Source: a virus
Taxonomy: Duplodnaviria > Caudoviricetes
Virus record (IMG/VR): IMGVR_UViG_3300033182_000558
Location: 1-57,172 of that record
DNA: 57,172 nucleotides
Strand: one strand, 5' to 3'
Shown here: one piece after another, positions 38,006 to 56,989 of the stretch
Numbering within the stretch: the first letter of the stretch is position 1
Layout of the letters: every line of letters begins with the position of its first letter
Notes under the pieces: model-generated
Databases searched by the model: none
What the model saw: only the letters and a program-made list of their open reading frames with translations
Told to the model about the DNA's origin: nothing
Position numbers and translations under genes: made by a program

Positions 38006-38729
38006 TTGCACAGACGTTTTTATTTACGGAACGTGTGATAGGATTTGTCCCGAAGCACCCGTACCTGTGTTTAATCCAACTCGTGAAGTGATGAATATGG
38101 GAATGGCGGGTAATGTATTCGCAAACCTTAGAGGGTTAGGTGCAAGTTTTGTGAATATGATTACCAACAATGACAACATTATAAAAACCCGATATGTAGA
38201 AGAGAAATCAAATCAAATGTTGTTACGAGTGGACGAGGATGATTGGTGTGAGGATAAGTTTAACATAAATGATGTTGACTTTGATAAGTACGATGGTGTT
38301 GTTGTCGCAGACTACGACAAAGGTTACTTATCATTTAAAGACTTGGTTGAGATAGGTAAACGGTCAAAGTGGTCTTTTGTTGATACAAAAAAATACAAAG
38401 ACTTTTCTTATTTTGAGCATTTTGATTTTGTAAAGATGAATGAGGCTGAATGGGAGAAGTGTAGAGCACACGGAGCAAACTACAAAGATGTGGAAGATAA
38501 ACTAATTGTAACCAAATCTCAAAAAGGGTGTACTCACCAAGGAATAACTTACCCTGTTGATACATCAGTAGAGGTTAGAGATGTTAGTGGTGCTGGGGAT
38601 ACGTGGACGGCTTCATTCGTATGGGATTATTTACATAACAAAGATGTCAAACACGCCATTCGTACTGCGAATGAGAATGCTACAAAAGTAGTTCAAAAAC
38701 GTGGTGTGTCTTTCTTATTTTTAGATTAA
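37980..38729 (+). CDS. HldE/RfaE domain I-type PfkB sugar kinase
   Basis: ILVIGDSCTD...RICPEAPVPV...GMAGNV...DYDKG...DVSGAGDT. Confidence 0.9.
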   Translation: MKILVIGDSCTDVFIYGTCDRICPEAPVPVFNPTREVMNMGMAGNVFANLRGLGASFVNMITNNDNIIKTRYVEEKSNQMLLRVDEDDWCEDKFNINDVDFDKYDGVVVADYDKGYLSFKDLVEIGKRSKWSFVDTKKYKDFSYFEHFDFVKMNEAEWEKCRAHGANYKDVEDKLIVTKSQKGCTHQGITYPVDTSVEVRDVSGAGDTWTASFVWDYLHNKDVKHAIRTANENATKVVQKRGVSFLFLD

Positions 38730-38774: not shown

Positions 38775-41351
38775 ATGATAGACCCAAAAGACTTAGGAAA
38801 CGAAATAGGTAAACAAATCATTGAAGCAATAGAAGAAACTTCAGACCAAAGTTCTTTTAATACAACATTAGATGAAATTGTAAAGGATTTTGTAAATGAA
38901 GCATCTTTAAGTAATGTAGGCCCTGATGATGGGCCGGGGTTTATGTATCCTAACTTTGATGCGTATAAAAGGGCTAGTGTTAGTGATAATAAAGGATTAC
39001 TAGACACGGGTTGGGAAATCGTTGACTATATGTTAGATGACGACCAAGAACAAGAATTAAACCCACCGATTTATCCAAATGGGCCGGTTGGTTCTGTTTC
39101 CTATTTCCCATCGGGTGATATTGGTGTAACAACACCTACAAACCAAGAGGACATCTACGGTGTTCAGGCATATAATAAGTGGAAAAAACACGTTATGAAT
39201 ATGTTAAAGTCTTTGGGTTGGGAGATAAAACAATCTAAACAACAAGAACGACTTACAAAAAAATTATCAGTTGATTCCGCAAAATCTATAAAAAACCAAC
39301 CTGTAAAAGATAGAACTAAGGGGGTACAAAAAGCAATTGACTTGGAAGAGTCATTGATGAACGAAATACCATATTCAGATTTAAAGAAAATAGACAACTA
39401 CGCAGACTCACAACTCAACCCCGTAGATGTGGTATTGACAGGTAGACACTTCTTTGACCGACTACAAGACCCAAGAAACAAAAAAGAAATATCACAAGCA
39501 GAACTTATTGGATTTTTCAAAAGACTATCAAAAAAGAAGAAAGACTTTTTAGAGTTTATAAAAAAATACGACCAAATAGTTGCAAAAGACAACCGAACTA
39601 AACTTAATATTCCATTTATGAAACAAGCGAACAAAGTAATCGCTAAAACCATAATGAGAAAAGATGACTTTAAAACATCTAATCCATCGTTTCATTTTGA
39701 ATCCATACACACACTTCCTGATTCACTTGGTATAGACAGAAGTAAGATGCCACAAATCAAGTCAACATTGATGGGTGACTACATACGATACATTGATGAT
39801 ATGGGTGTTAGAGTTAGAAAAAAGAAACTACCAATATCTACACTCAAAAATACACAAGGACATCTAAACAAAAAGAAAATTCAAGGACTATTACAAAAAG
39901 GTGGAAAGGAAAGTTTACAGAAACCGTTTATAATTTCATCTGACAATTACATACTTGACGGACACCATCGTGCAAACGCCCTATACAATATTGATGATAA
40001 ACATAGAGCGAATGTAATACAAATAAACTTACCTATAAAGAAACTCATACAAGTTACTCACGATTTCAGTAAAGTAAAATACAAAGACATAGATGAGAGT
40101 TATACTATGGAGGTGTATATTGAGGATACACCATACGCGGGTATACTTGAGAATATGTTTATTGGAAAAGAAAATACAAAAATTGAAGAAAGTATTGGAC
40201 TTTCTCTAAATGAATCCGTATATTCTAGTGAAGAAATGATTTTAGACACCGACAAAGACATTTTCTCTGAAATGGTAATTCAACAAACATTAGGTATTTT
40301 GTCAGAAAGTGGAGCATTGCCGGGAGTAACTCAAGTACCATCATCTGTCGCAGACAAGGTAGTGGGTGAGTTTATTAAAAAAGTATTACAACCACTAAAC
40401 ATCGTAAAGGTGGATAGTGTGGTTGGGTTAGGTAGTACTCGTGCTATTCTAAAGAAACTACCTACGGCTAAAAAGATGAGTGGTGATTTAGACTTACTTG
40501 CTATTGCTAAACAAGATAGTAGAAGTGCGGTGGGTAAGTTGGTTAGTTGGGCTCAAAAAAGAGATTATGATTATCAAGTCGCTTTTGGAAACATATTTAG
40601 TGTCGCATATCCATTTGGTAAAAGTAAATATCAAGTTGATTTGATGATTTCACAACCATCGGAAGAAGATGAGGTGTATAACTATATGAGAAAGTTTAAA
40701 TACTTTTCAGACGAAGACCCATCACAAAAAGGAGATTTTATACTCAAAGGAGCACACAGGTCTGAATTGGCTAAAACAGTTGTGAAGGCTATGGGTTTAA
40801 GTGCAGCTGAGAGTGGATTTAAACAATTCAAGTGGAATGACAAATACAATGATGTAAATACAATTGCAGACACACTTGAAAAGAAGGCTAGTAGATTTAG
40901 AGATAAGGACAAACAACAACAAACATTAGAACTTGTTGATTTATTACGAAACAAAATCAAAGACATTCGTAAACTAAAAAAGTATTTGGTAGACCAAGAC
41001 GATTTACTCAAAGACCGTTACCCTAGTTCATTGTTTAAAAGTGTTCCAAAAGCATTTGACCTTATGATTGATATGTTATTCAGTAAGGAAAACACCCCTG
41101 AAACTTGGGAGAAGGTATTAGACCGAAAGTTTAAAGTATCAAACGCTATTGAACGAATGAATAAGTTTGATGATGTTATGAATATAATGAAAGAACTTCT
41201 AAAAAAACGACTGATTACTCCTCGTGGTGTATTGGGTGTATTTACCGAAATGAAGAAAAACTTTGATACAGGTAAAGCGGCCGCCAAGTGGAATAGGTCA
41301 TTAGAAGAATACATAGAAAAACAATTCCCTTTCCTTAAAAACAGATGGTAA
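38775..41351 (+). CDS. Multidomain protein: unknown N-domain + putative RegB/RelE-fold module + ParB/Srx-like domain + Pol-beta-type nucleotidyltransferase domain
   Basis: HFFDRLQDPR...AKTIMRK; TQ...PFIISSDNYILDGHHR (ParB-N); GLGS...SGDLDLL...QVDLMI (NTase hGS-DxD-D). Confidence 0.6.
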   Translation: MIDPKDLGNEIGKQIIEAIEETSDQSSFNTTLDEIVKDFVNEASLSNVGPDDGPGFMYPNFDAYKRASVSDNKGLLDTGWEIVDYMLDDDQEQELNPPIYPNGPVGSVSYFPSGDIGVTTPTNQEDIYGVQAYNKWKKHVMNMLKSLGWEIKQSKQQERLTKKLSVDSAKSIKNQPVKDRTKGVQKAIDLEESLMNEIPYSDLKKIDNYADSQLNPVDVVLTGRHFFDRLQDPRNKKEISQAELIGFFKRLSKKKKDFLEFIKKYDQIVAKDNRTKLNIPFMKQANKVIAKTIMRKDDFKTSNPSFHFESIHTLPDSLGIDRSKMPQIKSTLMGDYIRYIDDMGVRVRKKKLPISTLKNTQGHLNKKKIQGLLQKGGKESLQKPFIISSDNYILDGHHRANALYNIDDKHRANVIQINLPIKKLIQVTHDFSKVKYKDIDESYTMEVYIEDTPYAGILENMFIGKENTKIEESIGLSLNESVYSSEEMILDTDKDIFSEMVIQQTLGILSESGALPGVTQVPSSVADKVVGEFIKKVLQPLNIVKVDSVVGLGSTRAILKKLPTAKKMSGDLDLLAIAKQDSRSAVGKLVSWAQKRDYDYQVAFGNIFSVAYPFGKSKYQVDLMISQPSEEDEVYNYMRKFKYFSDEDPSQKGDFILKGAHRSELAKTVVKAMGLSAAESGFKQFKWNDKYNDVNTIADTLEKKASRFRDKDKQQQTLELVDLLRNKIKDIRKLKKYLVDQDDLLKDRYPSSLFKSVPKAFDLMIDMLFSKENTPETWEKVLDRKFKVSNAIERMNKFDDVMNIMKELLKKRLITPRGVLGVFTEMKKNFDTGKAAAKWNRSLEEYIEKQFPFLKNRW

Positions 41352-42805
41352 TGAAAAAACTTGATATACTTACGTATGACATCTTAACAGAAGACATTGT
41401 AAAGATGGATAAAATCATTCATTTAGATGAAATGTCTACCGATGACTTTATCAACTTTGTAAAATCATTTGTCAACATTGAAAACAGAGATGTTGAGATA
41501 AGTGAGAAAATTGATGGTATGAACTTTTCGTTTGGACTTGACAATGACAATAAGTTTTACAGTAAGACCAAATCATCTAAACCTGTAACCGACCCATCGG
41601 TGTATGGTGATTTTAGTTTCTTACAAGGCATTAAAGACTATCACAATATTCTAAAATCAAACTCACGTATTCTTAAAACTGTAAAAGATATGGTTAGTGG
41701 GTTTGAGAAAAAGGATAAACCATTTACTTTACAAGTATTTGGAGAACTCCTACCATCTTCACAGACCAACATTGTGAAGTATGATAAGAGTAAGATTGGT
41801 AATGGTGCGATTGTATTGTTTGATGTAAAAGTTGACGGACAGTCAATACTAAACAAACCATACAGTAAAAAAGTATTTAACAGTTTAGCCACACAACTAA
41901 ATGACAAGGGTGGTTGGAAGGTATATGAAAAACCACTTCTAAAACCCGATAAGTTTAAGTTTGATGTCTACCATCTAATTACATTAGAAGAGTTGTACAG
42001 GAAGTATTTTGACATCCTAAAGTCACGTAAACGTGCAGACAAACCTACAAAGGAAAAGGCTAAACGAGTGATACAGTCGTTAATGGATAGTATCAAACGA
42101 CAGTTTATGAAAAATATGATTATGAACCGACAGTCTGTATTGGGGAATGTAGAACCTGAAGGATTGATACTACGAGATTTCAGTAACAACTTATTAGTAA
42201 AACTTGTAGATAAAGACGCGTTCACTCAAGCCAATCAAGCAGGTTCTCAATATATCAAAGATGTTATGATGGCGGTTAAAAAAGTGAATACCAATATAAA
42301 GAATGATATATTTGGTAATGCTGATATTATGAAGAACTTTGCGAAAGTTATAGAGAAATCAGTAGATTGGGCATTTACACAAAAACAATCAGACCCTAAC
42401 TTTAAAGTTAAATCATTGGACGATGTATTAAAAGTTGCGTATAATGATATGGTGGAGGAAAAACGAATCAAATACACTGCACCTCAAGCATTATCCAAGA
42501 CAGTAAAATATCTCAAAGAATTACGTAAAGAGATTGTAAAATCAATGAAAGAATTAGAGGACGGTAAGGATGATATACCTGAATCAAAATACATCATTAG
42601 TAAAGAAAAAATGGAATCATACCGAGATTCTGTGGACGGAACCGTTAGTGATTTACAATCATTACCGAAGGGTGAGGGTATAAAGGTTTATTTAACGATT
42701 ATCTCATTCGTATTCGGCCCTTATAAAATTAGAGAACTTAAAAAACAGTTTAACCTATCAGAAGGTTTGACTACAAAGAGATTGGGAACAATAATAATAA
42801 AATAG
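41345..42805 (+). CDS. RNA ligase (Rnl2-like) / ATP-dependent ligase-fold nucleotidyltransferase
   Basis: Motif I SEKIDG, III VFGEL, IIIa VLFDV, IV EGLIL, V LVKLV. Confidence 0.7.
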   Translation: MVMKKLDILTYDILTEDIVKMDKIIHLDEMSTDDFINFVKSFVNIENRDVEISEKIDGMNFSFGLDNDNKFYSKTKSSKPVTDPSVYGDFSFLQGIKDYHNILKSNSRILKTVKDMVSGFEKKDKPFTLQVFGELLPSSQTNIVKYDKSKIGNGAIVLFDVKVDGQSILNKPYSKKVFNSLATQLNDKGGWKVYEKPLLKPDKFKFDVYHLITLEELYRKYFDILKSRKRADKPTKEKAKRVIQSLMDSIKRQFMKNMIMNRQSVLGNVEPEGLILRDFSNNLLVKLVDKDAFTQANQAGSQYIKDVMMAVKKVNTNIKNDIFGNADIMKNFAKVIEKSVDWAFTQKQSDPNFKVKSLDDVLKVAYNDMVEEKRIKYTAPQALSKTVKYLKELRKEIVKSMKELEDGKDDIPESKYIISKEKMESYRDSVDGTVSDLQSLPKGEGIKVYLTIISFVFGPYKIRELKKQFNLSEGLTTKRLGTIIIK

Positions 42806-43413: not shown

Positions 43414-43777
43414 GGAACTTTTACAAAATTTAGTTGACCGTTTAGATACGATTGAAAAACATATGCCGAATGGTGAGATGGTGGTGATAATGAACCACAT
43501 TGAAACTATGATGGAGAAACAAGAGAAAATGTATCAAGACCTATCTGAAATGAAAAAAACATTGTTGAACCCCGACAATGGTGTCGTTGTACGGGTAAAT
43601 AAAAACACAGAGTTCAGAGAAGAACAAGAAGATAAAGAACGAGATTTTGATAAACTATTCAGAGAACATTACCAACTAATGACATTCAAATCTAACATTA
43701 CAAAGTTTTTATGGTTGATATTATCATCCATCACCGCAAGTATTGTAATGTTATGGACTAAAATATTTAACTCATAA
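43379..43777 (+). CDS. Coiled-coil protein with C-terminal transmembrane helix (holin-like?)
   Basis: C-terminal FLWLILSSITASIVMLWTKIF; near a spanin-like gene. Confidence 0.5.
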   Translation: MNKPTTKSLTNKELLQNLVDRLDTIEKHMPNGEMVVIMNHIETMMEKQEKMYQDLSEMKKTLLNPDNGVVVRVNKNTEFREEQEDKERDFDKLFREHYQLMTFKSNITKFLWLILSSITASIVMLWTKIFNS

Positions 43778-43802
43778 CTATATTTATAGAAAAAGGAAAA
43801 CT

Positions 43803-43997
43803 ATGAAATATTCTAAATTAAAAGAATTAGTATCACAATTAGTAGAAGAAGAACAAACAAAATATCAAAAGTTCTTTCAAGCTGCTCTTAAAAAGTTTGG
43901 TGTAAACTCACCTGCAGACTTTGAGAGTGAAGAAAAGAAAAAAGAGTTCTTCAATTACGTTGATAATAATTACGACGCAGAAAATGAAACTGACTAA
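43803..43997 (+). CDS. Small conserved head-associated protein
   Basis: YQKFFQAALKKFGVNSPA...KKKEFFNYVD, preceded by LVEEE and an upstream ATATTTATA box. Confidence 0.65.
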   Translation: MKYSKLKELVSQLVEEEQTKYQKFFQAALKKFGVNSPADFESEEKKKEFFNYVDNNYDAENETD

Positions 43998-44250
43998 ACG
44001 TGAGTTAAGACAAATCATCCGAGAAGAGTTGTCGTTGGTTGTAGAAGCCGACGCAAAACAACTTATTAAGAAATCGGGTGGTAGTGAAAAGAAATTCTAT
44101 GACTTATTGTCTAATACTGAAAACAGTATGGGGGATGATAAGTATTATAAATGGTTATCTTCGGAACTTAAAAAAGTTGGAGTTAGTAAAAAAGTGGATA
44201 AGTATTCACAAGCAGACTCCGAAGAAACATTATACAAAAAACTAAAATAG
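43984..44250 (+). CDS. Hypothetical protein with MKLTKRELRQIIREE leader
   Basis: ATG 43984. This type of amphipathic N-terminal leader is common in head-region proteins of large T4-like phages. Confidence 0.65.
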   Translation: MKLTKRELRQIIREELSLVVEADAKQLIKKSGGSEKKFYDLLSNTENSMGDDKYYKWLSSELKKVGVSKKVDKYSQADSEETLYKKLK

Positions 44251-46870: not shown

Positions 46871-47422
46871 ATGATTATAAAAGAAAATATACAACTAACC
46901 GAAGGTTTAGAATATCACAAAGAAACTAATATCCCACTTGATGAAAACGTATATCGTTTTGGAAGTGCAAATTATTTTAAGTTATACAACGAAGCAAGAA
47001 AACTATACGAACAGGGAAAACTAAAACCCATTGATGAATTAGAAGAGTTTTTCTTAAAGAGTGATATTGGAAAGATTGGGATATACGAAGGTGAAAAAGT
47101 ATTGTTAGACTTCCCAATGCCAATGAAAGAAGCAGAATATCAAGGTAAAGATGTAGAACTAAACAAACCCAAACGTGGTGGTAGTAAAAAGTTCTATGTA
47201 TATGTTAAAGATGGGGATAAGGTAAAGAAAGTTTCATTTGGTGCTGCTGGTGGAGGGGGTAAATTATCTGTAAAATTGAAAGACCCAAAAGCTAGAAAAG
47301 CATTTAGTGACCGACACAACTGTCCTGACAAAACAGATAAGACATCTGCGGGGTATTGGTCGTGCGCCTTGCCGAGATTTGCAAAGCAACTTGGATTGAG
47401 TGGAGGAGGTAGATATTGGTAG
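46871..47422 (+). CDS. Conserved phage head-region protein
   Basis: EAEYQGKDVELNKP...KKVSFG...RKAFSDRHNC...GYWSC. Confidence 0.75.
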   Translation: MIIKENIQLTEGLEYHKETNIPLDENVYRFGSANYFKLYNEARKLYEQGKLKPIDELEEFFLKSDIGKIGIYEGEKVLLDFPMPMKEAEYQGKDVELNKPKRGGSKKFYVYVKDGDKVKKVSFGAAGGGGKLSVKLKDPKARKAFSDRHNCPDKTDKTSAGYWSCALPRFAKQLGLSGGGRYW

Positions 47423-47691
47423 ACCCATACACAGATAATCAAATCACCGATGATGTAAGAGTACGAGTATTTGATACTGACATTGATGAAGACGAGTTGG
47501 TATGGCATCGGGATAAACGAAATAGGGTCGTTGAGATATTAGACGGTGAAGGTTGGATGTTTCAGTTTGAAGACGGAATACCTTTTCCAATGAAAAAAGG
47601 AGATAAGTTAGAAATAACAAAAGAACAATACCACAGAGTAATTAAAGGTGATACACCGTTAAAAATTAAAATAACAGAATATGGCAGATAA
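47416..47691 (+). CDS. Small cupin-like conserved phage protein
   Basis: LVWHRD...GEGWMFQ...YHRVIKG; TTG start. Confidence 0.7.
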   Translation: MVDPYTDNQITDDVRVRVFDTDIDEDELVWHRDKRNRVVEILDGEGWMFQFEDGIPFPMKKGDKLEITKEQYHRVIKGDTPLKIKITEYGR

Positions 47692-49486
47692 TAGTTTAAG
47701 GGCAGGATTACAACGTTTGTTTTCTACGAATGTTATTGTTAGAAAGAACCCAAATGGTTCAGGTCTAAAAGTCCGTGATACATCCAAACTTCAAGCGTTT
47801 AACCAAGATTATCTAAAAGACAAGTTTAGACGAATACATAGAAGTTCATTGACCGCAAACTCTCGTGACCAAATCACGGGATATTCTGCTATGAGGGAAC
47901 AACTTTACCGTGATTATGATATAATGGATAGTGACCCTATTATTGCATCTGCTCTTGACATTTATGCTGACGAATCAACTACCCGTGATGAGAGTGGTAA
48001 TCTATTAAAGATTTATTCAAGTGATGATAATATCAAAGAGATATTAGAGAACCTTTACTATGATATTATGAACTTAGAGTTTAACTTATGGCCGTGGGTT
48101 AGGAACTTATCAAAATATGGTGACTTCTTTTTACACCTTGACATAAGTGAAAAGTATGGTATTGTAAATGTTAAACCATTATCAGTACACGAAATTGAAC
48201 GATTGGAAGATACTGACCCTGACAATCCACATTATGTGAAGTTTTCTAACACATTGGAAAAAGATATAGAGTATGAAAGTTACGAGATGGCACACTTCCG
48301 TCTTTTGAGTGATTCTAACTTTATCCCTTATGGTAAATCAATGGTTGAGAATGCTAGACGAATCCATAAACAATTACAGTTGATGGAAGATGCTATGTTG
48401 ATTCATCGTATAATGAGGGCTCCATCTAAACGAGTGTTTAAGATTGACATTGGTAATATTCCACCCAATGAGGTTGAGAACTATATGGAACAAGTCATCA
48501 ACAAGATGAAGAAAGAACCACATATAGACCGAACCACAGGTGATTACAACTTAAAGTACAATATACAAAATATGACCGAGGACTTTTACTTACCCGTCCG
48601 CGGTCAAAACAACAGTACCGAGATAAATGAATTGAGTGGTTTATCATATGACGGTACAGAGGATATTGAGTATCTAAAAAACAAAATGATGTCTGCTCTT
48701 AAAATCCCTAAAGCATATTTGGGATATGAGGAAGGATTAAATGGTAAAGCTACACTCGCACAAGAAGACATTAGGTTTGCTAGAACCATAGAAAGAATCC
48801 AACGAATTGTAGAAAGTGAGTTGACTAAAATTGCTATCATTCATTTATATTCACAAGGATTTAAGGACGAACAGTTGGTTGATTTTAGTATCAAACTAAA
48901 CAACCCATCTACCATCTATACAAGAGAACAAATAGAAATACTTTCATCTAAATTAGGTCTTGTTCGTGATATTAAATCAGAGAAGATACTATCACAGGAT
49001 TGGATATATGAAAATATCTTTGATATGACCGAAGATGACATAGAAGAACAACGAGAACGATTGTTGGAGGATATGAAACAAACCTTTAGATTTAACACCA
49101 TTGAAATGGAGGGTAGAGACCCTGAAACAGAAAGTGGTGAAGAAGAAGGTGATATGGAGGGTGGTGAAGAAGGAGGAGATGACTTTGGTGTGGGTGAATT
49201 TTTAAACGCATCTGACGAAGACCCATCAGATGAATATAGTGAACCAAATGATAATAAAGGTTACTACACATCTAAAGACTTTGAGAACTATGGTAAACAG
49301 GGTGGACGACCAAAACACACTTCACGTTATGAGAAAGATGACTATGTTATGGGAAGAGACCCAATTGGTAGAAAAGAGAGAAGTAGAAACGAAAGTATTT
49401 TAGATACACTCAAAAAAGATATACCAAGAGTAAAACCTGTTACTACTATATTGTCCGAGGATAATATATTAAAAGATAATGAATAA
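47681..49486 (+). CDS. gp20: Portal vertex protein (T4 gp20-like)
   Basis: QLQLMEDAMLIHRIMRAPSKRVFKIDIGNIP, EDFYLPVRG, DIEYL...ALKIP, DIRFARTI. Confidence 0.96.
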   Translation: MADNSLRAGLQRLFSTNVIVRKNPNGSGLKVRDTSKLQAFNQDYLKDKFRRIHRSSLTANSRDQITGYSAMREQLYRDYDIMDSDPIIASALDIYADESTTRDESGNLLKIYSSDDNIKEILENLYYDIMNLEFNLWPWVRNLSKYGDFFLHLDISEKYGIVNVKPLSVHEIERLEDTDPDNPHYVKFSNTLEKDIEYESYEMAHFRLLSDSNFIPYGKSMVENARRIHKQLQLMEDAMLIHRIMRAPSKRVFKIDIGNIPPNEVENYMEQVINKMKKEPHIDRTTGDYNLKYNIQNMTEDFYLPVRGQNNSTEINELSGLSYDGTEDIEYLKNKMMSALKIPKAYLGYEEGLNGKATLAQEDIRFARTIERIQRIVESELTKIAIIHLYSQGFKDEQLVDFSIKLNNPSTIYTREQIEILSSKLGLVRDIKSEKILSQDWIYENIFDMTEDDIEEQRERLLEDMKQTFRFNTIEMEGRDPETESGEEEGDMEGGEEGGDDFGVGEFLNASDEDPSDEYSEPNDNKGYYTSKDFENYGKQGGRPKHTSRYEKDDYVMGRDPIGRKERSRNESILDTLKKDIPRVKPVTTILSEDNILKDNE

Positions 49487-49521: not shown

Positions 49522-50382
49522 ATGAAAAAAATTAAACACTCCAAATACAAAAACACGGGTTTTTTGTTTGAGATTTTAACTAGACAAGTAACCGTGGATA
49601 CTATGGAGGGTGTATCAGAGAGTAAAGCCCTATCTTTAATTAAAAAGTATTTCAATAAAGGTACTGAGTTATACAAAGAATACGCATTGTATGATGCGTT
49701 GATGAAGAAAAAGTTTGTGAGTGAAGTACGTGCTAATGACTTTATAGAAAAAGTAATCAAGTTACAAGAACGACTAAATATAAAGAAGTTAAAGACCGAA
49801 AAATACAATTTGGTAAAAGAAATTAAAAAACATTATAGTCTTGATGAAATGTTTTCCACCCAACTAAATGAATATAAAGTATTGGGGTCAATTTACATCT
49901 TGTTTGAAGGTGAAGGTTTAAATGAAAATACCATCACACACTACGATGATTGTAAAAACAATTTGATGGAGTTTATGATGAAAGAAGGAGATTACACATC
50001 AAGTACTCCTACTGTTTCAGAACGATATTTAAAAGAAGATAAAGAAGTACGTTTGTTGGCTTACAAACTAATGATTGAGAAGTTTAATAAAAAGTATTCA
50101 CCATTAGGTAAGAAACAAAAGTCTTTACTAAAAGAGTTTATAAACAATGTTTCTAATACTAATTCTTTGAGAACATACATCAACAAAGAAGTTGACGTAG
50201 TAAAAGAAACACTAGAAAATCAGATTGGTAAAACATCATCTGACATTACAAAAATTAAATTGAATGAAACTATCAAAATGATAGATAAGATTAAAAAAGG
50301 TAATGTAGTAAGAAACGAACAGTTCAAGGCTATGTTACATTTTTATGATTTAGTAGATGAATTGGAGAAGGTGAATGGATAA
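49522..50382 (+). CDS. Conserved hypothetical head-module protein
   Basis: MKKIKHSKYKNTGFLFEILTRQ...; follows the portal, with a tandem ATATTTATA box upstream. Confidence 0.75.
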   Translation: MKKIKHSKYKNTGFLFEILTRQVTVDTMEGVSESKALSLIKKYFNKGTELYKEYALYDALMKKKFVSEVRANDFIEKVIKLQERLNIKKLKTEKYNLVKEIKKHYSLDEMFSTQLNEYKVLGSIYILFEGEGLNENTITHYDDCKNNLMEFMMKEGDYTSSTPTVSERYLKEDKEVRLLAYKLMIEKFNKKYSPLGKKQKSLLKEFINNVSNTNSLRTYINKEVDVVKETLENQIGKTSSDITKIKLNETIKMIDKIKKGNVVRNEQFKAMLHFYDLVDELEKVNG

Positions 50383-50794
50383 AGTTGTTCGTACAATTGT
50401 AAAAGAGGTATTGAGAAAAGTTCGTAGTATGAATGAGGCTACTACTACTGCTAATGTAGCGGGTTATAATACTCCTTTTGCGTTTTCGGGTGACGGTGAT
50501 GATGAAAAGAAAAAGAAACATCTAAAAAACCAAGGATACACTATTGTAGAGAACAGATGGTTAGACCTTAAACGAGATGTTAATAGAACTGCTCCAAGAA
50601 AAATTGCAGACGGTGTTTCTAATCTCAATAAACAATTACACGAAATTGAAAAATACTTAAATTGGTACGGTAAAATCAGAACAGAGGGTGGTGTTAGTAA
50701 AGACAAATACCACAAACGTACTAGTAAACAGTTGAAAGAGATGAAAACAAGAATAATGAGAATTAACGAAAAATTGAATAGACTATCAATATGA
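50375..50794 (+). CDS. Hypothetical head-region protein
   Basis: 139 aa; MNE-ATTTANVAGYNTPFAF segment; C-terminal coiled coil. Confidence 0.7.
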   Translation: MDKVVRTIVKEVLRKVRSMNEATTTANVAGYNTPFAFSGDGDDEKKKKHLKNQGYTIVENRWLDLKRDVNRTAPRKIADGVSNLNKQLHEIEKYLNWYGKIRTEGGVSKDKYHKRTSKQLKEMKTRIMRINEKLNRLSI

Positions 50795-50940
50795 ACGAAA
50801 AACTTATTATAGAACGTATTGAAGAGTTCGTTAATGAAGAACTTGAACCATCTGATTTAAGAGAAATTAGAAAACTTATTAGACAAGAAATCGCAAACGT
50901 ATTGTTTGACTTATTTAAGAAAAGAGGTGTTTGGGTATGA
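50791..50940 (+). CDS. Small protein (49 aa), missed by the ORF track
   Basis: MNEKLIIERIEEFVNEELEPSDLREIRKLIRQEIANVLFDLFKKRGVWV*; ATGA overlaps at both ends. Confidence 0.75.
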   Translation: MNEKLIIERIEEFVNEELEPSDLREIRKLIRQEIANVLFDLFKKRGVWV

Positions 50941-51521
50941 ACAACTTATTGATAGAAACCAATTTATTTGAAGCACGATTACACGAAGACAACGGTAAGT
51001 TGTTAGTGAGTGGAGTGTTACAAAGAGCTGGTGCTAAAAACCAAAACGGTAGAGTGTATCCAAAACACATTTTAGAACGTGAGGTAAAACAATATGAACG
51101 ACTTATACAAGAAAGACGTGCGTTGGGTGAGTTAGACCACCCCGACAGTTCTGTTGTAAACTTACAGAATGTATCTCACAATGTTGTAGAGATTGGATGG
51201 AACGGTGATGATGTGGTAGGTAAAGTAGAAGTATTACCAACCCCATCAGGTAATATCCTAAAAGAACTTTTTAGAAGTGGTATTAGATTAGGTATTTCAT
51301 CTCGTGGTATGGGTTCGGTTCAAGAATCACCAAATGGGTTAGAGGTTCAAGAAGACTTTAACTTAATCGCGTTTGACTTTGTAAGTAATCCATCAACTCA
51401 CGGTGCGTTTTTATCACCAATATCAGAGGGAGTAAATCCAACGGTATGTGATATTTATTGTAAAACAGAAGATATTATATCAAAAATTATAATGGAATTA
51501 GGACAAGAATATGGCGTTTGA
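50937..51521 (+). CDS. gp21: Prohead core protease (T4 gp21-like)
   Basis: NQNGRVYP, ALGELDHP, NVSH, TPSG, GISSRGMGS, DFVSNPST. Confidence 0.96.
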   Translation: MNNLLIETNLFEARLHEDNGKLLVSGVLQRAGAKNQNGRVYPKHILEREVKQYERLIQERRALGELDHPDSSVVNLQNVSHNVVEIGWNGDDVVGKVEVLPTPSGNILKELFRSGIRLGISSRGMGSVQESPNGLEVQEDFNLIAFDFVSNPSTHGAFLSPISEGVNPTVCDIYCKTEDIISKIIMELGQEYGV

Positions 51522-51780
51522 ACAATACAATAAATTAGGACACCCCGGCAAGTTTGCTACTTCAACTACCGTAACATCGGGAGAGTTGGTATTGACGGGT
51601 TCTAACTACGGACATAGTGCGGTGATTAGAGGAACAGGTGCTACTGGCAATTTACACTTATCTAATGGTGGAACTATTGCGTTGGGTGATTTAGACGCGG
51701 GAGTAGTTCACGAATTATCACTAGAAAAAGTTTCATCTGTTAGTGGTGGGAACGTTTACCTACTGAAACGAGGATTCTAA
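51511..51780 (+). CDS. Small beta-rich hypothetical (possible capsid decoration) protein
   Basis: 89 aa, G/T/S/V-rich, overlaps the gp21 stop. Confidence 0.6.
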   Translation: MAFEQYNKLGHPGKFATSTTVTSGELVLTGSNYGHSAVIRGTGATGNLHLSNGGTIALGDLDAGVVHELSLEKVSSVSGGNVYLLKRGF

Positions 51781-51782
51781 AA

Positions 51783-53891
51783 GTGCCGGCACAATCACAA
51801 CAACAACAAAAACTTTTTGGACTAGCCCTATCAGTTAAAAGAGGTGATACTCCACGTAGTGAGGTTAGTAAAGATATAATAAAAATTGTAGATACTATGA
51901 GTGAAAAAGAAATTGAAGACTTCGCAGGAACCGAACACAAAGGACTACCTAAAAAAGTAGAACAGAAAATCCGTGAAATGGCTAGACAAACCATTAGAGA
52001 ACGAATGATGGGAGAGGCCAAATTCAACCGAGGTGATATGGTTAGGGTTATTGACAATCCTAAATATGTTATGGATAAAAAGAAATTCGCAGGTAAGTCA
52101 GGGTATGTTAAAAACATTATGGGTAGAGATGTAATGGTTAAGTTCCCAAATGGTAGAACTATTTTAGTTGACCCAAAAGATTTAGAGATGAACCCCAACG
52201 AATCAGTAAACGAAGCTAGAGATTTCTTGGTATATAATGTACAACCCAAAAAAGTTGAGGCATTTTTAAAGAAATATAAAAAAGTTGAACCATCTATGAA
52301 ACCATATTTGAAAGGTAACTTGATGAAGGCCTATGTCAAGTGGTTAGATTGGAAAAATAAGAATGAAGATAAACTTGGTGGTAGACCAGAAAAGGTAGAT
52401 TCACCTGCTTTTGGTTCAAAAACATTTTATAAATTTGATGGATTGCCGGGTTGGGCAAATGTATTTCAGTATTTGTATTATAAAATTAACTTGAAGGAAT
52501 CAGTAAACGAAGGAGATACACTTAAACAAGTAAAAAAGGGTAATAGTATAATTTTAAAGAAAGGAAATAAAATATACGCAACTATTTCTCAAAATCCAAA
52601 CAAAGAATTTAATTGGACTGTTTATTTTAAAAAAGGTGGAGCATTATCAGGATATAAAACTAAAGAAGATGCAATTGCTAGAGCACAGAAAATGAGTGAT
52701 AGTTTTAAAAGTGTGATTAATAAAATAAAAGGTGAATCAGTAAACGAAGGAATGGTAAAAATTGAAGTTGATTTATTCAAAAACTATAATCAACGAAGAC
52801 CTGATAAAACTGTTCCAATGAAAATAGATGATAAAACTACTCTTTCAAAGTTATTAAATCATACAACTTTCAAAGCTATGAAAGATAAATATGATTATAT
52901 AGAACTTCATTATGGTGATAAGTTTTTAGGTAGTGCTATGGCTGGAACTGATAATTGGGAATTTAAAAAAGGTAGAGGACTACAAGATACAAGTTTTAGA
53001 GAATCAGTAAACGAAGGTAAAAAGGCATTTAAAGTAAATCCACAAATAGGTAAAGCTAAATACAGTATTAGTTTCCACGATGGAAAATCAAAAAACAAAG
53101 ATGGAAGTGATTTTTGGGGAATTGAAACCTTTAAAAATAAAGTAGATTTAGAAAAAGGAATTAAAAACTATAAGAGTAAAGGATTTGTCCAAGAATCAGT
53201 AAACGAAGACTTTGGAACTATTGCTCTTGGTGTTGCAGGTGGATTACTTTTACTTAAAGTTCTAAAGTTTGTAGCTAAAAAAGTAATAGGAGGTGTTGCT
53301 CGTAATGCAACTTTAAGTAGAGAAGTATTGCATACAACCATAGAATCAATGACAAAAGAACTTATTAAGCAAAAAACTAAGAAGCCGAATGGTAAGCTTA
53401 AGGATGTAAGTTTAGAGGATATATTTAGGTTGAAAGTGGTACTTAAAAGATTAGTTGATAGGGGTGACATTAAAACGATGAACGATATTCAGAAAATTAT
53501 TAAAAAAGCATCAAACGGGAAGATGGAATCAGTAAACGAAGCAAATGGTGAGTTTGTTGTTTATGTTGAAAAAGATAATGGTAGAAAGAAACTTCTTCAT
53601 ACCAAGAAATCTCAACGAGCAGCCAATATGTTTATGTCTAAAAATATGGACAAAATCCTAAACAAATCAGGTATAAGAAGTATTGGTAGTATGAGTAAAG
53701 ACCAATGGGAAAAGAAAGAAGCACAGTTTGCAGAAAATATCAAGAAAAAAGGTATGAAAACTGTAACTAAAAAAGAATGGGACAGAACTCATAAAGATTT
53801 TAAAGGTATGATAAAAGGTCAACCTTATATGATGTGGTTTGACAAACAAACACAATCAACAGTATACGGCCCTGTTCATATCAAAGACTAA
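51783..53891 (+). CDS. Modular basic polyprotein: DUF3008-like N-terminus, KOW/SH3-like domain and ESVNE-delimited modules (putative internal head protein)
   Basis: GTG start; MPAQSQQQQKLFGLAL...MSEKEIEDFAGTEHKGLP; KFNRGDMVRVI...GKSGYV; six ESVNE linkers. Confidence 0.75.
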   Translation: MPAQSQQQQKLFGLALSVKRGDTPRSEVSKDIIKIVDTMSEKEIEDFAGTEHKGLPKKVEQKIREMARQTIRERMMGEAKFNRGDMVRVIDNPKYVMDKKKFAGKSGYVKNIMGRDVMVKFPNGRTILVDPKDLEMNPNESVNEARDFLVYNVQPKKVEAFLKKYKKVEPSMKPYLKGNLMKAYVKWLDWKNKNEDKLGGRPEKVDSPAFGSKTFYKFDGLPGWANVFQYLYYKINLKESVNEGDTLKQVKKGNSIILKKGNKIYATISQNPNKEFNWTVYFKKGGALSGYKTKEDAIARAQKMSDSFKSVINKIKGESVNEGMVKIEVDLFKNYNQRRPDKTVPMKIDDKTTLSKLLNHTTFKAMKDKYDYIELHYGDKFLGSAMAGTDNWEFKKGRGLQDTSFRESVNEGKKAFKVNPQIGKAKYSISFHDGKSKNKDGSDFWGIETFKNKVDLEKGIKNYKSKGFVQESVNEDFGTIALGVAGGLLLLKVLKFVAKKVIGGVARNATLSREVLHTTIESMTKELIKQKTKKPNGKLKDVSLEDIFRLKVVLKRLVDRGDIKTMNDIQKIIKKASNGKMESVNEANGEFVVYVEKDNGRKKLLHTKKSQRAANMFMSKNMDKILNKSGIRSIGSMSKDQWEKKEAQFAENIKKKGMKTVTKKEWDRTHKDFKGMIKGQPYMMWFDKQTQSTVYGPVHIKD
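52200..53541 (+). repeat. Six identical 16-bp in-frame direct repeats GAATCAGTAAACGAAG
   Basis: Starts at 52200, 52497, 52734, 53001, 53193 and 53526. Periods are 297, 237, 267, 192 and 333 bp, all multiples of 3. Confidence 0.95.
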
Positions 53892-53906
53892 ACAAATAAA
53901 AACAAT

Positions 53907-54110
53907 ATGTCGGTTACAAATGTAGGTGTTAAAGTAAGATATGGTAATGTTGAAAAAGCATTATCTATATTTAAAAAGAGAGTAAAAGAAACGGGAATAC
54001 TTCAGGAATACCGAAGTAGACAAGAATATATTAAACCCTCTGTAAAGAAAAGAAAAGCCAAAAAAGACGCTCAATATCGTTCTAGACTAGAACAACAAAA
54101 AAATATTTAA
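53907..54110 (+). CDS. rpsU: Phage-encoded ribosomal protein bS21
   Basis: VKVRYGNVEKALSIFKKRVKETGILQEYRSRQEYIKPSVKKRKAK matches the bS21 signature (ALxxFKR...Y.KPS..R). Confidence 0.9.
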   Translation: MSVTNVGVKVRYGNVEKALSIFKKRVKETGILQEYRSRQEYIKPSVKKRKAKKDAQYRSRLEQQKNI

Positions 54111-54243
54111 TTTTTTATATTTACATATATATTTATTCTTAACGAATACATCATTTCTATCTTATATGGTGTCAACGATATACTAACTGTCTATTGAAGC
54201 AACCAAATTGACTTCACAATATTAAAATTAAAACATAAATCGT

Positions 54244-55362
54244 ATGGCACAAGAAAAAAAATCACTTGTTGATGAAGTACTAGATGACGCTCTACAAGTT
54301 CGTGATACTGCTCTTGCCAACGCCAAACTTGCATTACAAGAGGCTTTTGAACCTCGTATCAAGTCTATGGTTTCTCGTCACTTACAAAGTGAAGCTGAAT
54401 TAGAAGAAGCTGAACTAGAAGAAGCTGAACTAGAAGAAGTTGAACTAGAAGAACGTGGTGATGAAGAGTTGGAAGAACGTGGTGAAGAAGAAGTTGAAGA
54501 AGGTGACGAAATCGGACTACCTGACCCAACTAACGCTGACGACGCTTCTCTTGAAGAAGAAGAACACGAAGACGAAGTTGAAGAAGAACTAGAACCATCT
54601 GACATTGATGACGAAAATGAAGAACCATCTGACGTGGCTTCTGACGATTCAGGTATTGGAGAGGGTGACCACTCTGACGAAGAAATGGAAGAAGAAATGG
54701 AAGAAGATGATGACCTTGACCTAGAGTCTGTAATCGCTGAATTAGAAGCTGAACTTTCTGAAGAAGAAGATGAAGACGAAATGGGTGAGGAAGAAGATGA
54801 AATAGATATGGACGATATGTCTATGGACTCTGAAGAAGAAGAGGAAGATGATGATGAAATTATTGACCTTGATGAACTACTTACTGCACTTACTGAAGAT
54901 GACGAAGTTGAAGAAGTCGTTGAAGAAGAAGTAGAAGAAGTAGTTGAAGAACAAAGCGAACTAGAACAGGAAAACCAAAGACTAGCTTCGGAACTTAAAG
55001 AACATCGTGAGGCAGTAGAAATCCTCCGCACTAAGTTAAATGAAGTCAACCTGTTAAACGCTAAACTCCTATATACAACTAAGTTATTCAGAAAATTCAA
55101 TCTTTCAAATGACCAAAAAATGAAAGTAGTTGAGTCTTTTGACCGTACTTCATCAGTACGTGAAACTAAGTTAGTATTTAGTACATTAGCAGAATCTTTG
55201 AGTATGAACAACTCTTCTAAAACTAAAAAGAAAGTTGCTTCTATTACTGAAGGATTCGCATCAAAACCCACGACATCTACTAAACCTAAACAACAAGAAA
55301 TCATTTCTGAAGGAAATGAAGTTGCTGATAGATTTAGAAGACTAGTATCTTATAACAAATAA
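54244..55362 (+). CDS. Prohead scaffold/core protein (T4 gp22-like)
   Basis: Very acidic (E/D-rich) with a coiled-coil C-terminus (LNEVNLLNAKLLY); directly upstream of the major capsid gene. Confidence 0.85.
   Translation: MAQEKKSLVDEVLDDALQVRDTALANAKLALQEAFEPRIKSMVSRHLQSEAELEEAELEEAELEEVELEERGDEELEERGEEEVEEGDEIGLPDPTNADDASLEEEEHEDEVEEELEPSDIDDENEEPSDVASDDSGIGEGDHSDEEMEEEMEEDDDLDLESVIAELEAELSEEEDEDEMGEEEDEIDMDDMSMDSEEEEEDDDEIIDLDELLTALTEDDEVEEVVEEEVEEVVEEQSELEQENQRLASELKEHREAVEILRTKLNEVNLLNAKLLYTTKLFRKFNLSNDQKMKVVESFDRTSSVRETKLVFSTLAESLSMNNSSKTKKKVASITEGFASKPTTSTKPKQQEIISEGNEVADRFRRLVSYNK
54391..54450 (+). repeat. 15-bp tandem repeat GAAGYTGAAYTAGAA x4 (EAELE/EVELE)
   Basis: gaagctgaattagaa gaagctgaactagaa gaagctgaactagaa gaagttgaactagaa. 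Confidence 0.85.
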
Positions 55363-55384: not shown

Positions 55385-56989
55385 ATGGACAACATCCAAT
55401 CTTTAGTTGAAAGTGCCGGTGAACGACATATCCAAAGCCAAAAGGCGAAAGAGCTTGTTTCTAAGTGGGAACATACAGGACTTCTTGAAGGATTAAAATC
55501 TGAACAACAAGCTTCTGCTATGGCTCAAGTACTTGAGAACCAAGCAAAACAACTTTTGGACGAGGCTACTCGTACAGGTACTACTGCAAACTCTGAACAA
55601 TGGGCTGGTGTAGCACTACCCCTAGTTCGTAGAGTATTCGGCGAAATCGCCGCACAGAACTTTGTTTCTGTACAACCTATGAACCTTCCATCAGGTCTAG
55701 TATTTTACTTAGACTACAAGTATGGTACTGTACAAAATGCAAAACCTGCATTTAACAATACTTCTCTTTATGGTGGTCAAGGTGGAACCGACACTCCAAC
55801 CAACGCAGCTACAAACGGTCTGTATGGTGCTGGACGTTTCGGATATTCTATCAATGACGTAGTAACTAGTGGAGTGGCTCCAACTTCTTACGCTAGTGCT
55901 TCTCAAGCTGACGTTAACTTTGACACTACCCTTTCTGCTTCTGTTGCAGCCGGTGAGATTACCAAAGTAACTATCGCGTCTTCTGAATTCACAAACCCTG
56001 ACTTAGAAGGTGTACGTGCTTTCCAAGCTAGTGGTTCTGCTGTTGTATCTAACCTAAACGCATTCAACACCACAAGTGGTGCTAACATCGTATTGTTCGT
56101 ATCTGCTGCCGCTGGTGCTTCTTCTTCTCTTGCAGGAGACTTTGAAGTTGCTTACCACAAACAACCAACTGATAGTTCACGTGGTGACTTTGAAGATGGT
56201 GCTGTTGGAGCTTTCGGTTCTGATATTGACATTCCTGAAATCAACCTTGATGTACAATCAAAAGCCATCGTTGCTAAGACTCGTAAGTTGAAAGCACAAT
56301 GGACTCCTGAATTGGCGCAAGACTTGAATGCATATCACGCTATTGACGCTGAAGCAGAATTGACTTCTGTTCTTTCTGACTACATCTCAATGGAAGTTGA
56401 TTTAGAAATCCTTGATATGTTGATTCAGAATGCCGTAACTACTGACTATTGGTCAGCTCGTGTAGGATATGAGTACGACTCTAACTCAGGTGCTTTTGCC
56501 ATCGGTGGTTCTAGTGGTGCAGGTCTTGCATATCAGAAAAACACTTGGTTCCAAACTTTAGGAACTAAAATCAATAAAGTATCTAACAAAATTCACCAAT
56601 TGACTATGCGTGGTGGTGCAAACTTCTTGGTTGCTTCTCCTGACGTATGTACAATTCTTGAATCTATCCCAGCGTTCTCTGTATCTGCTGGTAAAGATGC
56701 ACTTCAGTTTGCTGCAGGTGTAACTCAAGTAGGTACTCTTGGAAGTCGTTACACGGTTTACAAAAACCCATATATGACTGAAAACACAATCTTGGTAGGT
56801 TACAAGGGAGACAACTTCCTTGAGGCTGGTGCCGTTTACGCTCCATACGTACCATTGATTATGACTCCTACCGTATATGACCCAACCAACTTCACTCCGA
56901 GACGTGGTATTATGACCCGTTACGCTAAAGAAATGACGCGTTCTGAATTCTACGGTGTGATTTACGTTGAAGGTATGGAGACTCTATAA
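55385..56989 (+). CDS. gp23: Major capsid protein (T4 gp23-like)
   Basis: LPLVRR, VSVQPMNLPSGLVFYL, AKTRKLKAQWTPELAQDL.AYH.IDAEAEL, YAPYVPL, FTPRRGIMTRY. Confidence 0.97.
   Translation: MDNIQSLVESAGERHIQSQKAKELVSKWEHTGLLEGLKSEQQASAMAQVLENQAKQLLDEATRTGTTANSEQWAGVALPLVRRVFGEIAAQNFVSVQPMNLPSGLVFYLDYKYGTVQNAKPAFNNTSLYGGQGGTDTPTNAATNGLYGAGRFGYSINDVVTSGVAPTSYASASQADVNFDTTLSASVAAGEITKVTIASSEFTNPDLEGVRAFQASGSAVVSNLNAFNTTSGANIVLFVSAAAGASSSLAGDFEVAYHKQPTDSSRGDFEDGAVGAFGSDIDIPEINLDVQSKAIVAKTRKLKAQWTPELAQDLNAYHAIDAEAELTSVLSDYISMEVDLEILDMLIQNAVTTDYWSARVGYEYDSNSGAFAIGGSSGAGLAYQKNTWFQTLGTKINKVSNKIHQLTMRGGANFLVASPDVCTILESIPAFSVSAGKDALQFAAGVTQVGTLGSRYTVYKNPYMTENTILVGYKGDNFLEAGAVYAPYVPLIMTPTVYDPTNFTPRRGIMTRYAKEMTRSEFYGVIYVEGMETL

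Follow-up and report, generated by a model that had tools for sequence, protein, structure and literature searches.

The window analysed here is a 57,172-nucleotide (nt) stretch of phage DNA (Caudoviricetes; IMG/VR record IMGVR_UViG_3300033182_000558) that makes up the entire record of its virus and is estimated to be 23% complete. This marine, T4-like phage has a prohead protease of the S77 (T4 gp21) family, a T4-type portal and a Gp23-type capsid protein, all within 5 kb. The protease gene is followed, at a distance of 262 bp holding one open reading frame (ORF) of 89 amino acids (aa), by the subject of this analysis: a single long ORF that is divided by six identical copies of a short coding repeat, here called the linker, into a leader segment and a series of unrelated basic cassettes (Table 1).

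The repeat, the 16-mer GAATCAGTAAACGAAG, occurs six times on the + strand (linkers 1 to 6), and no seventh copy is found in the window even when two mismatches are allowed. By chance, 0.04 copies would be expected, and none of 100 shuffles gave six. All of the copies lie in frame 0 of the ORF, and each consists of the five codons of the pentapeptide ESVNE and one more base, which opens the next codon; the residues that follow are A, G, G, G, D and A in order. The 30 nt that flank the copies on each side show no relatedness to one another. The segments so delimited measure, with their linkers, 144, 99, 79, 89, 64, 111 and 116 aa, with an isoelectric point (pI) of 8.8–10.1 and a Lys content of 12–22%. 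A previous reading of this DNA, made without database searches (the sequence-only reading), had described six identical in-frame 16-mers separating Lys-rich segments without mutual similarity, in a gene placed between the gp21-type protease and the scaffold and capsid genes; the exact scan with frame check, the composition and flanks of the segments, and a Pfam scan of the neighbouring genes bear it out on each of these counts. Its segment length of 59–106 aa was approximately right, the measured range being 64–144 aa with the linkers included.

Table 1. Features of the head-gene region of the window; the arrow marks a presumed cleavage point, and modules are numbered in the order of the ORF.
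Feature	Position	Strand	Remarks
Portal, T4-type	47681-49486		Pfam Portal_T4, E 3.7e-73
p139, conserved head-module protein	50375..50794	+	N-terminal ...KVRSMNE↓ATTT junction
Prohead protease, Peptidase_S77 (T4 gp21 family)	50931..51521	+	Pfam E 1.1e-27; presumed processing enzyme
Polyprotein ORF	51783..53891	+	702 aa, GTG start; leader, then unrelated basic cassettes; six ESVNE linkers
Leader, aa 1-78	51783..52016	+	DUF3008 (Pfam) and helix ending ...RERMMGE↓A
Module 1b, aa 79-139	52017..52199	+	Separate cassette after leader
Linker 1, ESVNE↓A	52200..52215	+	Seawater-contig joints or loose ends at 52199, 52216-52218
Module 2	52215..52496	+	About 94 aa before linker; 14 homologues in best 150 of 648 matches
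Linker 2, ESVNE↓G	52497..52512	+	
Module 3	52512..52733	+	Stand-alone homologues P0111 (78 aa), P0137 (76 aa)
Linker 3, ESVNE↓G	52734..52749	+	
Module 4	52749..53000	+	Homologues P0003, P0021, P0064
Linker 4, ESVNE↓G	53001..53016	+	
Module 5	53016..53192	+	Most widespread cassette (family F2); 96 of best 150 matches (of 648)
Linker 5, ESVNE↓D	53193..53208	+	
Module 6	53208..53525	+	Hydrophobic N-terminal stretch DFGTIALGVAGGLLLLKVL... (by eye)
Linker 6, ESVNE↓A	53526..53541	+	
Module 7	53541..53888	+	116 aa, two subdomains; AlphaFold2 pLDDT 87.5
Acidic scaffold-like ORF	54244-55362		
Gp23-type capsid protein	55385-56989		Pfam Gp23, E 1.2e-79
Q-L-L-D-E↓A, capsid N-terminus, aa 57-61	55553..55567	+	80-sequence alignment: E 80/80, A 76/80

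The exact 16-mer is present in at least 119 IMG/VR stretches. In the 118 loci analysed, among the matches listed, 166 of the 173 copies are read as ESVNE within an open stretch of 100 aa or more, two to five copies are present in each of 40 loci, and all 47 gaps shorter than 1500 bp between copies are multiples of three; 74 of these loci carry homologues of the portal, the protease or neighbouring head genes of the window. A further 80 IMG/VR loci were fetched by similarity of the capsid protein (55–64% identity; one fragment, at 92%, lacks the upstream region). ES[VI]NE is found in 158 ORFs of the 202 sources taken together, with two to six occurrences in 82 of these ORFs. At 264 distinct sites, conservation is limited to the five core residues and the one that follows (A 100, G 67, E 22, D 20, S 19, V 17), one-residue variants of the linker are rare, and the flanks are Lys-rich and variable. 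The occurrences in ...CESVNESPA (L016, L022, L046 and L068) were rejected as a chance pentapeptide, being in an unrelated ORF on the other strand with other codons (TCT/TCC, AAT), and were left out of the linker codon counts.

The cassettes of the window recur in many other proteins and in other combinations. Searches with modules 2 to 7 against 1.84 billion representative proteins (phmmer) gave 648 matches at E ≤ 0.001, 249 of them at E ≤ 1e-10, and 115 of the best 150 of the 648 hold one to eight ES[VI]NE sites. Within those best 150, homologues covering at least 60% of a module number 96 for module 5, 21 for module 7, 14 for module 2 and four each for modules 3, 4 and 6. The module 5 family has 13 members in the fetched loci, in at least 11 different contexts, and the module 7 homologues occupy varied positions in proteins of 164–825 aa. 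Protein P0002 (414 aa) is 82–91% identical to the window protein, yet its architecture is module 1, module 3, another module and module 7; module 3, directly after module 1 there, lies behind a different leader in the marine TARA scaffold L209. A 66-aa stretch of module 1b, which has weak sub-threshold Pfam matches only (SH3-like, L21e-like), shares 68% identity with a portion of another polyprotein, that of L097.

Homologues of single modules standing alone, for which the sequence-only reading had proposed a search, were found by phmmer (P0111, P0137, P0016 and P0090, for example). Those of modules 2, 5 and 6 have short N-terminal leaders that end in a hydrophobic residue, any residue and Glu, followed by Ala or Gly; across the stand-alone homologues such leaders measure 10–13 aa and end in [LIVM]-x-E↓[AG]. 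The leader is MIKLKDILNE↓A for module 2, and those of the module 6 homologues P0016 and P0090 end in ...INE↓D and ...SVNE↓E. Modules 3 and 4 also occur without a leader of their own (P0111, P0137, P0064). The same reading had treated the modules as independent folds rather than one integrated fold, and the two that were folded, modules 5 and 7, are predicted to be compact independent domains; the AlphaFold2 model of module 5 (pLDDT 81) has a strand-strand-strand-helix-strand arrangement followed by a low-confidence linker tail (last block pLDDT 49). The models are consistent with exposed linkers between autonomous domains. As a separate observation, the start of module 6 after the presumed cut (53208-53270, +) is hydrophobic and Gly-rich (DFGTIALGVAGGLLLLKVL...) and is conserved in P0016 and P0090; it could be a membrane-active segment.

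When 151 distinct ORFs were cut at the linker and its close variants and the pieces clustered with a 70% coverage rule, 499 segments (median 94 aa) fell into 72 families and 205 singletons, in many different orders. The ends of local alignments between these sequences concentrate at the linker. Of 3389 ends of protein high-scoring segment pairs (HSPs), 28% lie within three residues of a site, against 5% at random positions; for DNA HSPs at 80% identity or more, a motif edge is no more than 4 nt away from 25% of the 874 starts and from 32% of the 839 ends (2% at random), and the modal breakpoints coincide exactly with the motif's first and last base. The outcome is illustrated most clearly by three loci, L018, L102 and L094. 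These loci are 99–100% identical over 207 bp upstream and 93–95% identical downstream, and at one shared linker L018 has no extra cassette, L102 has two (492 bases) and L094 has one (150 bases), the residue after that linker being I, A and V, respectively. By these comparisons the cassette array and its junctions at the linker can be taken as established, and it is at the 16-nt linker that cassettes are gained, lost, exchanged and rearranged, so that the proposed variation of module number, identity and order among related loci, with junctions at the 16-mer, is confirmed.

Comparison with core genes shows that cassettes also move individually between phages whose core genes are far more diverged. 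Cassette DNA is 88–99.5% identical between loci whose portal or protease genes are 66–83% identical, as in L011 and L093 (cassette 95.4%, core genes 67% and 72%) and in L146 and L156 (cassette 99.5%, core 83%). In a set of 102 comparisons chosen for HSPs of at least 88% identity, 30% have a cassette identity that is higher than the core-gene identity by over 10 points. A search for related loci with the whole ORF gave none in viral contigs and one, L209, in metagenome contigs.

The same turnover can be followed in seawater. Twenty public runs from eight studies, mostly seawater metagenomes, hold 26–43% of the sampled words of 51400-54300, and the Logan contigs of four seawater runs from four studies (X1, X5, X9 and X13) were aligned to this part of the window. 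For the genes on either side and for modules 1, 3 and 7, cover is at 95–99% or more. A 2555-nt contig of X1 runs from 52497-52733 directly into 53526-54300, with two and six differences (over 99% identity on both sides); 16 letters at the joint from 52733 to 53526 fit either side, and therefore module 3 is directly joined to module 7. The same joint is present in X5. In a 1588-nt contig of X13, and also in X9, 51800-52216 is followed by 157 other letters and then by 52497-52748 (97–99% identical), and module 2 has therefore been replaced. Another joint in X5 links 52199 to 53193, with lower identity on its right side (14 differences in 93 letters).

Order and number also differ in these contigs. 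In a 356-nt contig of X1 and X5, other sequence is followed by module 4 and then by 13 bases identical to the start of module 3, so that module 4 appears to precede module 3, the reverse of the window order. An X5 contig has ESVNE↓GKDDF in place of the stop codon after module 7, and therefore a further cassette follows module 7 in that run. Of the 24 loose contig ends listed, the majority coincide with a linker edge or miss it by a few bases. The four runs leave module 2 (52273-52466) and the central part of module 6 (53340-53436) uncovered; this absence is not evidence by itself, and for these parts the comparison draws on bridging contigs alone. The deletion variants between repeats that had been suggested as a check are thus seen as linker-to-linker joints and module replacement in near-identical contigs, and cassette turnover is ongoing in present-day seawater populations.

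Residues 3–59 of the ORF, within the leader, match DUF3008 (PF11450; E 2.1e-14, 53.9 bits against a gathering cut-off of 24), and the ORFs of relatives start, with MPAQSQQQQK, at the same point. Homologues of the leader occur in 22 of 83 related loci, and several of the ORFs that carry it are polyproteins with ES[VI]NE followed by A or G and with other modules; in P0125 and P0141 the same leader, ending in ...SEMTE↓G, directly precedes a module 5 homologue. In many relatives the cassettes are carried by a homologue of the 139-aa ORF of the window rather than by DUF3008, and they split its N- and C-terminal parts (families F17/F18/F23, then cassettes, then F3). A tblastn search of the whole ORF against 50,697 phage records matched by the DUF3008 part alone, in 10 Synechococcus phage records; in S-SRM01 this domain sits within a 553-aa protein elsewhere in the genome, without ESVNE. 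The 78-aa leader is probably a prohead-targeting propeptide.

Literature is cited below by PMC number. T4 gp21 cuts after L/I-X-E (PMC9026906), and short N-terminal targeting sequences of about 10–20 aa, removed by gp21, bring the internal proteins and Alt into the T4 head (PMC7411985). Against this background, the ORF of the window is probably a head-morphogenesis polyprotein, in which a DUF3008-type leader and at least seven unrelated small Lys-rich cassettes, each ending in ESVNE, would be cut apart and packaged, and in which the cassettes are shuffled at the linker. The leader would carry the chain into the assembling prohead, where the neighbouring S77/gp21-type protease, judging from the motif, would cut after the last Glu of each linker, V-N-E followed by A, G or D being a stereotyped form of the [LIVMF]-x-E site. 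Cleavage would free the cassettes as internal head proteins comparable to those of T4, and cassettes would be exchanged by recombination within or at the short identical linker. The data are strongly consistent with the cargo reading already put forward from the sequence, in which a DUF3008 leader targets the prohead, the protease cuts at V-N-E and the products are injected; its cleavage, packaging and delivery steps are well motivated predictions.

A wider proposal, more tentative than the polyprotein itself and somewhat doubtful as a whole, is that a large marine and freshwater T4-like clade maintains an 'integron without integrase' within a virion protein. Cassettes of hundreds of families, each with a 16-nt linker that is also a protease site, would pass as semi-autonomous units from one diverged phage to another and be lined up in frame after a head-targeting leader. 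Every phage population would thereby package a rapidly changing cocktail of proteins and deliver it to the host, possibly for counter-defence or takeover, and the dominance of one linker version would reflect molecular drive rather than codon choice.

For the released cassettes, the leading candidate roles are DNA charge neutralization in the head and action on the host after ejection. It is possible, though less likely than not, that the polyprotein is cleaved and packaged as described and that its cassettes, instead of being effectors aimed at the host, are interchangeable, basic 'stuffing' that neutralizes and organizes the DNA, with a turnover that is largely neutral or results from selfish spread of cassettes with their linkers. 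The 303 cassettes of the clade have a median pI of 9.4 (80% above 8.5) and a median Lys content of 15%, the lysines of T4 internal proteins contact DNA phosphates (PMC3012670), no match to an enzyme or inhibitor family is found for the window cassettes, and cassette content is highly variable even in near-identical phages, all of which suits such a role. The cassettes are, nevertheless, folded conserved domains rather than low-complexity basic tails. The T-even internal proteins are also basic and highly diverse, with only their targeting sequence conserved, and yet include a specific nuclease inhibitor (PMC3012670). Furthermore, the larger polyproteins of some relatives hold enzyme-like parts, CTP_transf_like in L203, L154 and L189 and Zeta_toxin in L104.

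In some relatives a large P-loop domain comes after the DUF3008 leader or the linker: L089 (L089:6468-7601) has 'GGAGSGKG' by eye, and a segment of L104 (L104:7877-9388) matches Pfam Zeta_toxin at E 2.4e-5. In the cyanophage S-SCSM1, a stand-alone DUF3008 ORF and an adjacent NMNAT (a CTP_transf-type enzyme) are annotated as virion proteins. According to PMC9602691, mass spectrometry served to identify the virion proteins, and NMNAT-like proteins are repeatedly found in the virions of cyanophages; the virion label of S-SCSM1 ORF93 comes from the annotation, and the available text of that source does not name this ORF.

It is improbable, although the cleavage step is itself predicted from sequence, that the product of the ORF stays uncleaved, as a structural or core protein of the beads-on-a-string type, with ESVNE as a flexible linker and with shuffling at joints that are simply tolerated. 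The low-confidence linker tail of the module 5 model would fit a flexible joint, and the E-S of the linker, at P5/P4, falls outside the specificity of gp21-type enzymes. The homologues of module 5 speak against it. All 95 representative homologues have Glu directly before the module (background 7.5%) and 91 have one of the residues L, I, V, M and F at P3 (background 26%), even where other linker residues differ, the exact ESVNE being present in 33 only. The gp21-type pattern is therefore the invariant feature and ESVNE its commonest form. The short leaders of stand-alone modules show the same x-E↓A/G pattern, the S77 protease gene lies just upstream, and a conserved L-x-E↓A, probably the maturation cleavage site, is present in the clade's capsid protein a short way ahead of the Gp23 domain (Pfam start at residue 71). 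The 139-aa ORF has a comparable ...S-M-N-E↓A. By this evidence, cleavage by the S77/gp21-type protease after the last Glu of the linker is inferred.

The identity of the linkers at synonymous positions raises a different possibility. If codons were chosen independently with local codon usage, six identical copies would have a probability of about 1e-7 to 3e-5. In a motif-independent sample, 25 distinct ESVNE sites from 14 of the 80 loci fetched by capsid similarity, the exact 15-mer is present at 11 of the 25 sites, against about 4% expected from codon usage; TCA is used at 19 (background 0.39), GTA at 23 (0.51) and AAC at 16 (0.27), and Ser is never encoded by AGY, which accounts for 24% of the Ser codons in the same ORFs. 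The linkers therefore have a common descent or undergo repeated re-copying. The sequence-only reading needs correction on this point: the synonymous identity is not peculiar to this genome, as the bias is clade-wide and synonymous variants (TCG, TCC, AAT and GAG) are common in relatives. Given a frequency of 0.70 for the major linker form (a truncated-binomial estimate from the loci fetched by the 16-mer), six of six major-form linkers have a probability of about 0.007–0.12.

Homogenization of the linkers within a genome by gene conversion was considered and rejected, because two linkers of one locus resemble each other no more than linkers of different loci do: identical pairs amount to 3 of 14 (0.21) within loci and 0.21 between loci in the unbiased set, and to 0.50 within and 0.62 between in the set fetched by the 16-mer. 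The reading preferred here is that one nucleotide version stays common through the frequent transfer of cassettes together with their linkers; it is proposed that this version dominates the clade because the two are often re-copied together.

A still less probable explanation gives the nucleic-acid sequence of the 16-mer the primary role, for instance as an RNA signal or as the site recognized by a homing enzyme or site-specific recombinase, and makes the encoded ESVNE secondary. The dominance of one version and the complete avoidance of AGY would be expected of such an element. So would the base after the pentapeptide, which is G in 226 of 264 sites; the residues concerned, A, G, E, D and V, are chemically diverse and share only a G-first codon, which hints that the conserved unit at the DNA level extends to base 16. 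The common synonymous variants count against it, as do the amino-acid variants (ESVTE, ESINE, EMTE and others), which retain [LIVMF]-x-E and not the DNA sequence. Moreover, the flanks have no common sequence or structure, no recombinase is found among the neighbouring ORFs scanned, and the copies keep almost without exception to one frame of long ORFs. That the array is an assembly chimera joined at the short repeat is very improbable: the exact window order was not recovered in the four seawater runs, where modules 2 and 6 are uncovered, but the run index uses words of 31 letters, longer than the 16-nt repeat (the assemblies of the runs presumably also use k = 31), dozens of independent contigs from different samples have multi-copy arrays, and the same architecture is present in representative proteins of other collections, such as P0002.

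Several observations weigh against a cleaved, packaged and linker-shuffled polyprotein. Regarding shuffling, the evidence from metagenomes comes from short contigs, an overlap of 13 bases is the basis for the reversed order of modules 4 and 3, and the junctions at the linker could reflect the survival of in-frame interdomain joints, with the linker not being the recombination substrate. Val excepted, conserved capsid columns used as a control reach a codon identity that the linker, compared across the clade, does not clearly exceed (pairwise identity of S 0.60, V 0.84, N 0.52 and E 0.92 and 0.85 in the linker; S 0.56, V 0.59, N 0.71 and E 0.72 in the capsid). Regarding cleavage, P3 is Val at the window sites and not the Leu/Ile of the T4 motif, and protease specificity alone fails to explain five fixed residues, because the LLDE site of the capsid lacks E-S at P5/P4. 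A loose N-terminal leader pattern is not enriched, being found in 12 of 147 matches (8%) and 241 of 1978 control ORFs (12%).

Evidence from cultured phages and from fold comparison is also on that side. No cultured phage with the motif was found by tblastn of the ORF or among the nearest phages by capsid protein. The nearest named relatives by that protein (about 53% identity), Flavobacterium phage immuto, Microcystis phage Mel-JY01 and the uncultured LR756508, share the gene order and lack a repeated pentapeptide upstream of the capsid gene, in the region that matches. Comparison of folds and families assigns no function to any cassette: Pfam gives no family above threshold for the window modules at E up to 1, with weak matches only; PHROGs matches are limited to the DUF3008 part; the best ESM Atlas score for module 7 is 0.78, under the lead level of the tool; Foldseek with modules 5 and 7 against PDB and BFVD gives nothing at E ≤ 0.001; and the best Z in the wide VIA-align search with module 7 is 4.3.

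Among known systems, the polyprotein most resembles in its presumed working the internal proteins of T4 (IPI, IPII, IPIII and Alt). The window phage has a T4-type portal, an S77 protease and a gp23-type capsid protein, the products would be small and basic, the motif ends in hydrophobic-x-Glu followed by A or G, and stand-alone homologues of the cassettes have leaders of 10–13 residues. In T4, however, each protein has one gene and one leader, whereas the window ORF chains up to seven or eight behind a single leader, a 78-aa DUF3008 segment instead of a targeting sequence of about 10–20 aa, with one stereotyped five-residue linker. The window modules have no Pfam family in common with the T4 proteins, and their cleavage and ejection are predicted.

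The polyvalent proteins described by Iyer et al. in 2017 (PMC5512222) are likewise multidomain proteins encoded beside virion genes, predicted to be packaged, delivered and processed, with mosaic architectures of 2–15 domains per polypeptide, which may be compared with the leader and at least seven modules between the protease and capsid genes of the window. Zeta_toxin-like and nucleotidyltransferase-like domains in polyproteins of some relatives add to the likeness. Polyvalent proteins are, in contrast, processed by their own MPTase, and no repeated linker is described in the available text (PMC5512222); the window ORF has no peptidase or enzyme domain by Pfam, neither an MPTase nor the recognized conflict-system enzyme domains of polyvalent proteins, its presumed cutter is the prohead protease, and its domains form tiny families set apart by an identical linker.

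Two other phage systems are closer in the manner of their evolution. In PeSL shuffling (Arbiol et al. 2010, PMC2839356), short repeats flank non-essential modules of T4-type phages, and recombination leads to insertions, deletions and replacements among close relatives; PeSLs are intergenic promoter-terminator elements that move whole genes, whereas the window repeat is coding, in-frame, 16 nt long and within one ORF. In the gp38 adhesins (Trojet et al. 2011, PMC3157838), conserved short in-frame motifs separate interchangeable variable segments, and these motifs form the core of a single domain and are not cleavage sites. The window segments differ in being separate folds, and their motif is a probable protease site.

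In bacterial polymorphic toxins (CdiA with its VENN motif, Rhs), a short conserved peptide marks the boundary at which variable C-terminal modules are recombined; in these proteins a single tip varies, orphan cassettes lie downstream, and no tandem in-frame array in a virion protein is involved. The comparison with integrons, made by the sequence-only reading, holds for the outcome and not for the mechanism. There is an ordered array of interchangeable cassettes, bounded by repeats and expressed from one upstream signal. The window cassettes, on the other hand, are not separate genes, no integrase was found in Pfam scans of the 19 ORFs between 37980 and 56989, and there are no structured sites of the attI or attC type and no attC-type inverted repeats, the 16-mer not being palindromic and its flanks having no shared sequence.

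By defining features, the window system belongs to none of the T4 internal-protein, polyvalent, PeSL and gp38 kinds, and it is not an integron. By analogy, it would work like the T4 internal-protein system fused into one frame and evolve like PeSL modules or gp38 segments. No published description of such a system was found in the literature searched, subscription journals and supplementary files being outside its reach. If the linkers are cut and the cassettes packaged, the array would be a compact natural way of loading many small proteins into a head from one gene, and the protein load of the head could be quickly changed. It would also be a natural design for multi-cargo packaging, comparable to engineered fusions to the T4 capsid-targeting sequence (PMC3012670). 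The 648 representative proteins that match six modules of this window point to a large unexplored pool of putatively virion-delivered proteins, for which the five-residue, 16-nt linker beside T4-type head genes provides a search handle.

The remaining observations concern other genes of the window. Three small ORFs (289, 139 and 49 aa) lie between the portal and protease genes, and no tRNA genes are found in the window. Between the polyprotein and the scaffold-like ORF, a gene for ribosomal protein S21 is present at 53907-54110 (+; Pfam E 5.4e-16); it has tblastn homologues in 37 of 83 related loci, and Microcystis phage Mel-JY01 has an annotated RpsU gene at the same place.

Three stretches outside this region resemble parts of the polyproteins of relatives. 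An 858-aa ORF at 38775-41351 (+), without a Pfam match, has by eye a ParB-like 'DGHHR' motif and an N-terminal ...DFVNE↓A junction about 42 residues in, and its middle part (39294-40073) is 28–58% identical to the first segments of large ESVNE polyproteins (L203, L147 and L097); it may be another packaged, processed protein. A 183-aa ORF at 46871-47422 (+), between the terminase and portal genes and also without a Pfam match, is 45–56% identical to the terminal modules of relatives' polyproteins (L130, L200, L105 and L127, for example), and can for this reason be regarded as a cassette-type protein that is a stand-alone gene. The alternative leader found most often in the polyproteins of relatives, that of family F0 with its EF-hand-like DxDxDG sequence, is 35–49% identical to the stretch at 43728-44018 (+), which no ESVNE cassette follows in the window. 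Finally, two enzyme-like ORFs lie upstream of the terminase gene: an RNA-ligase-like ORF at 41345-42805 (+; Pfam RNA_ligase, E 8.6e-6, 26.4 bits, slightly below the cut-off of 27) and a PfkB-family kinase-like ORF at 37980-38729 (+; E 1.5e-12).

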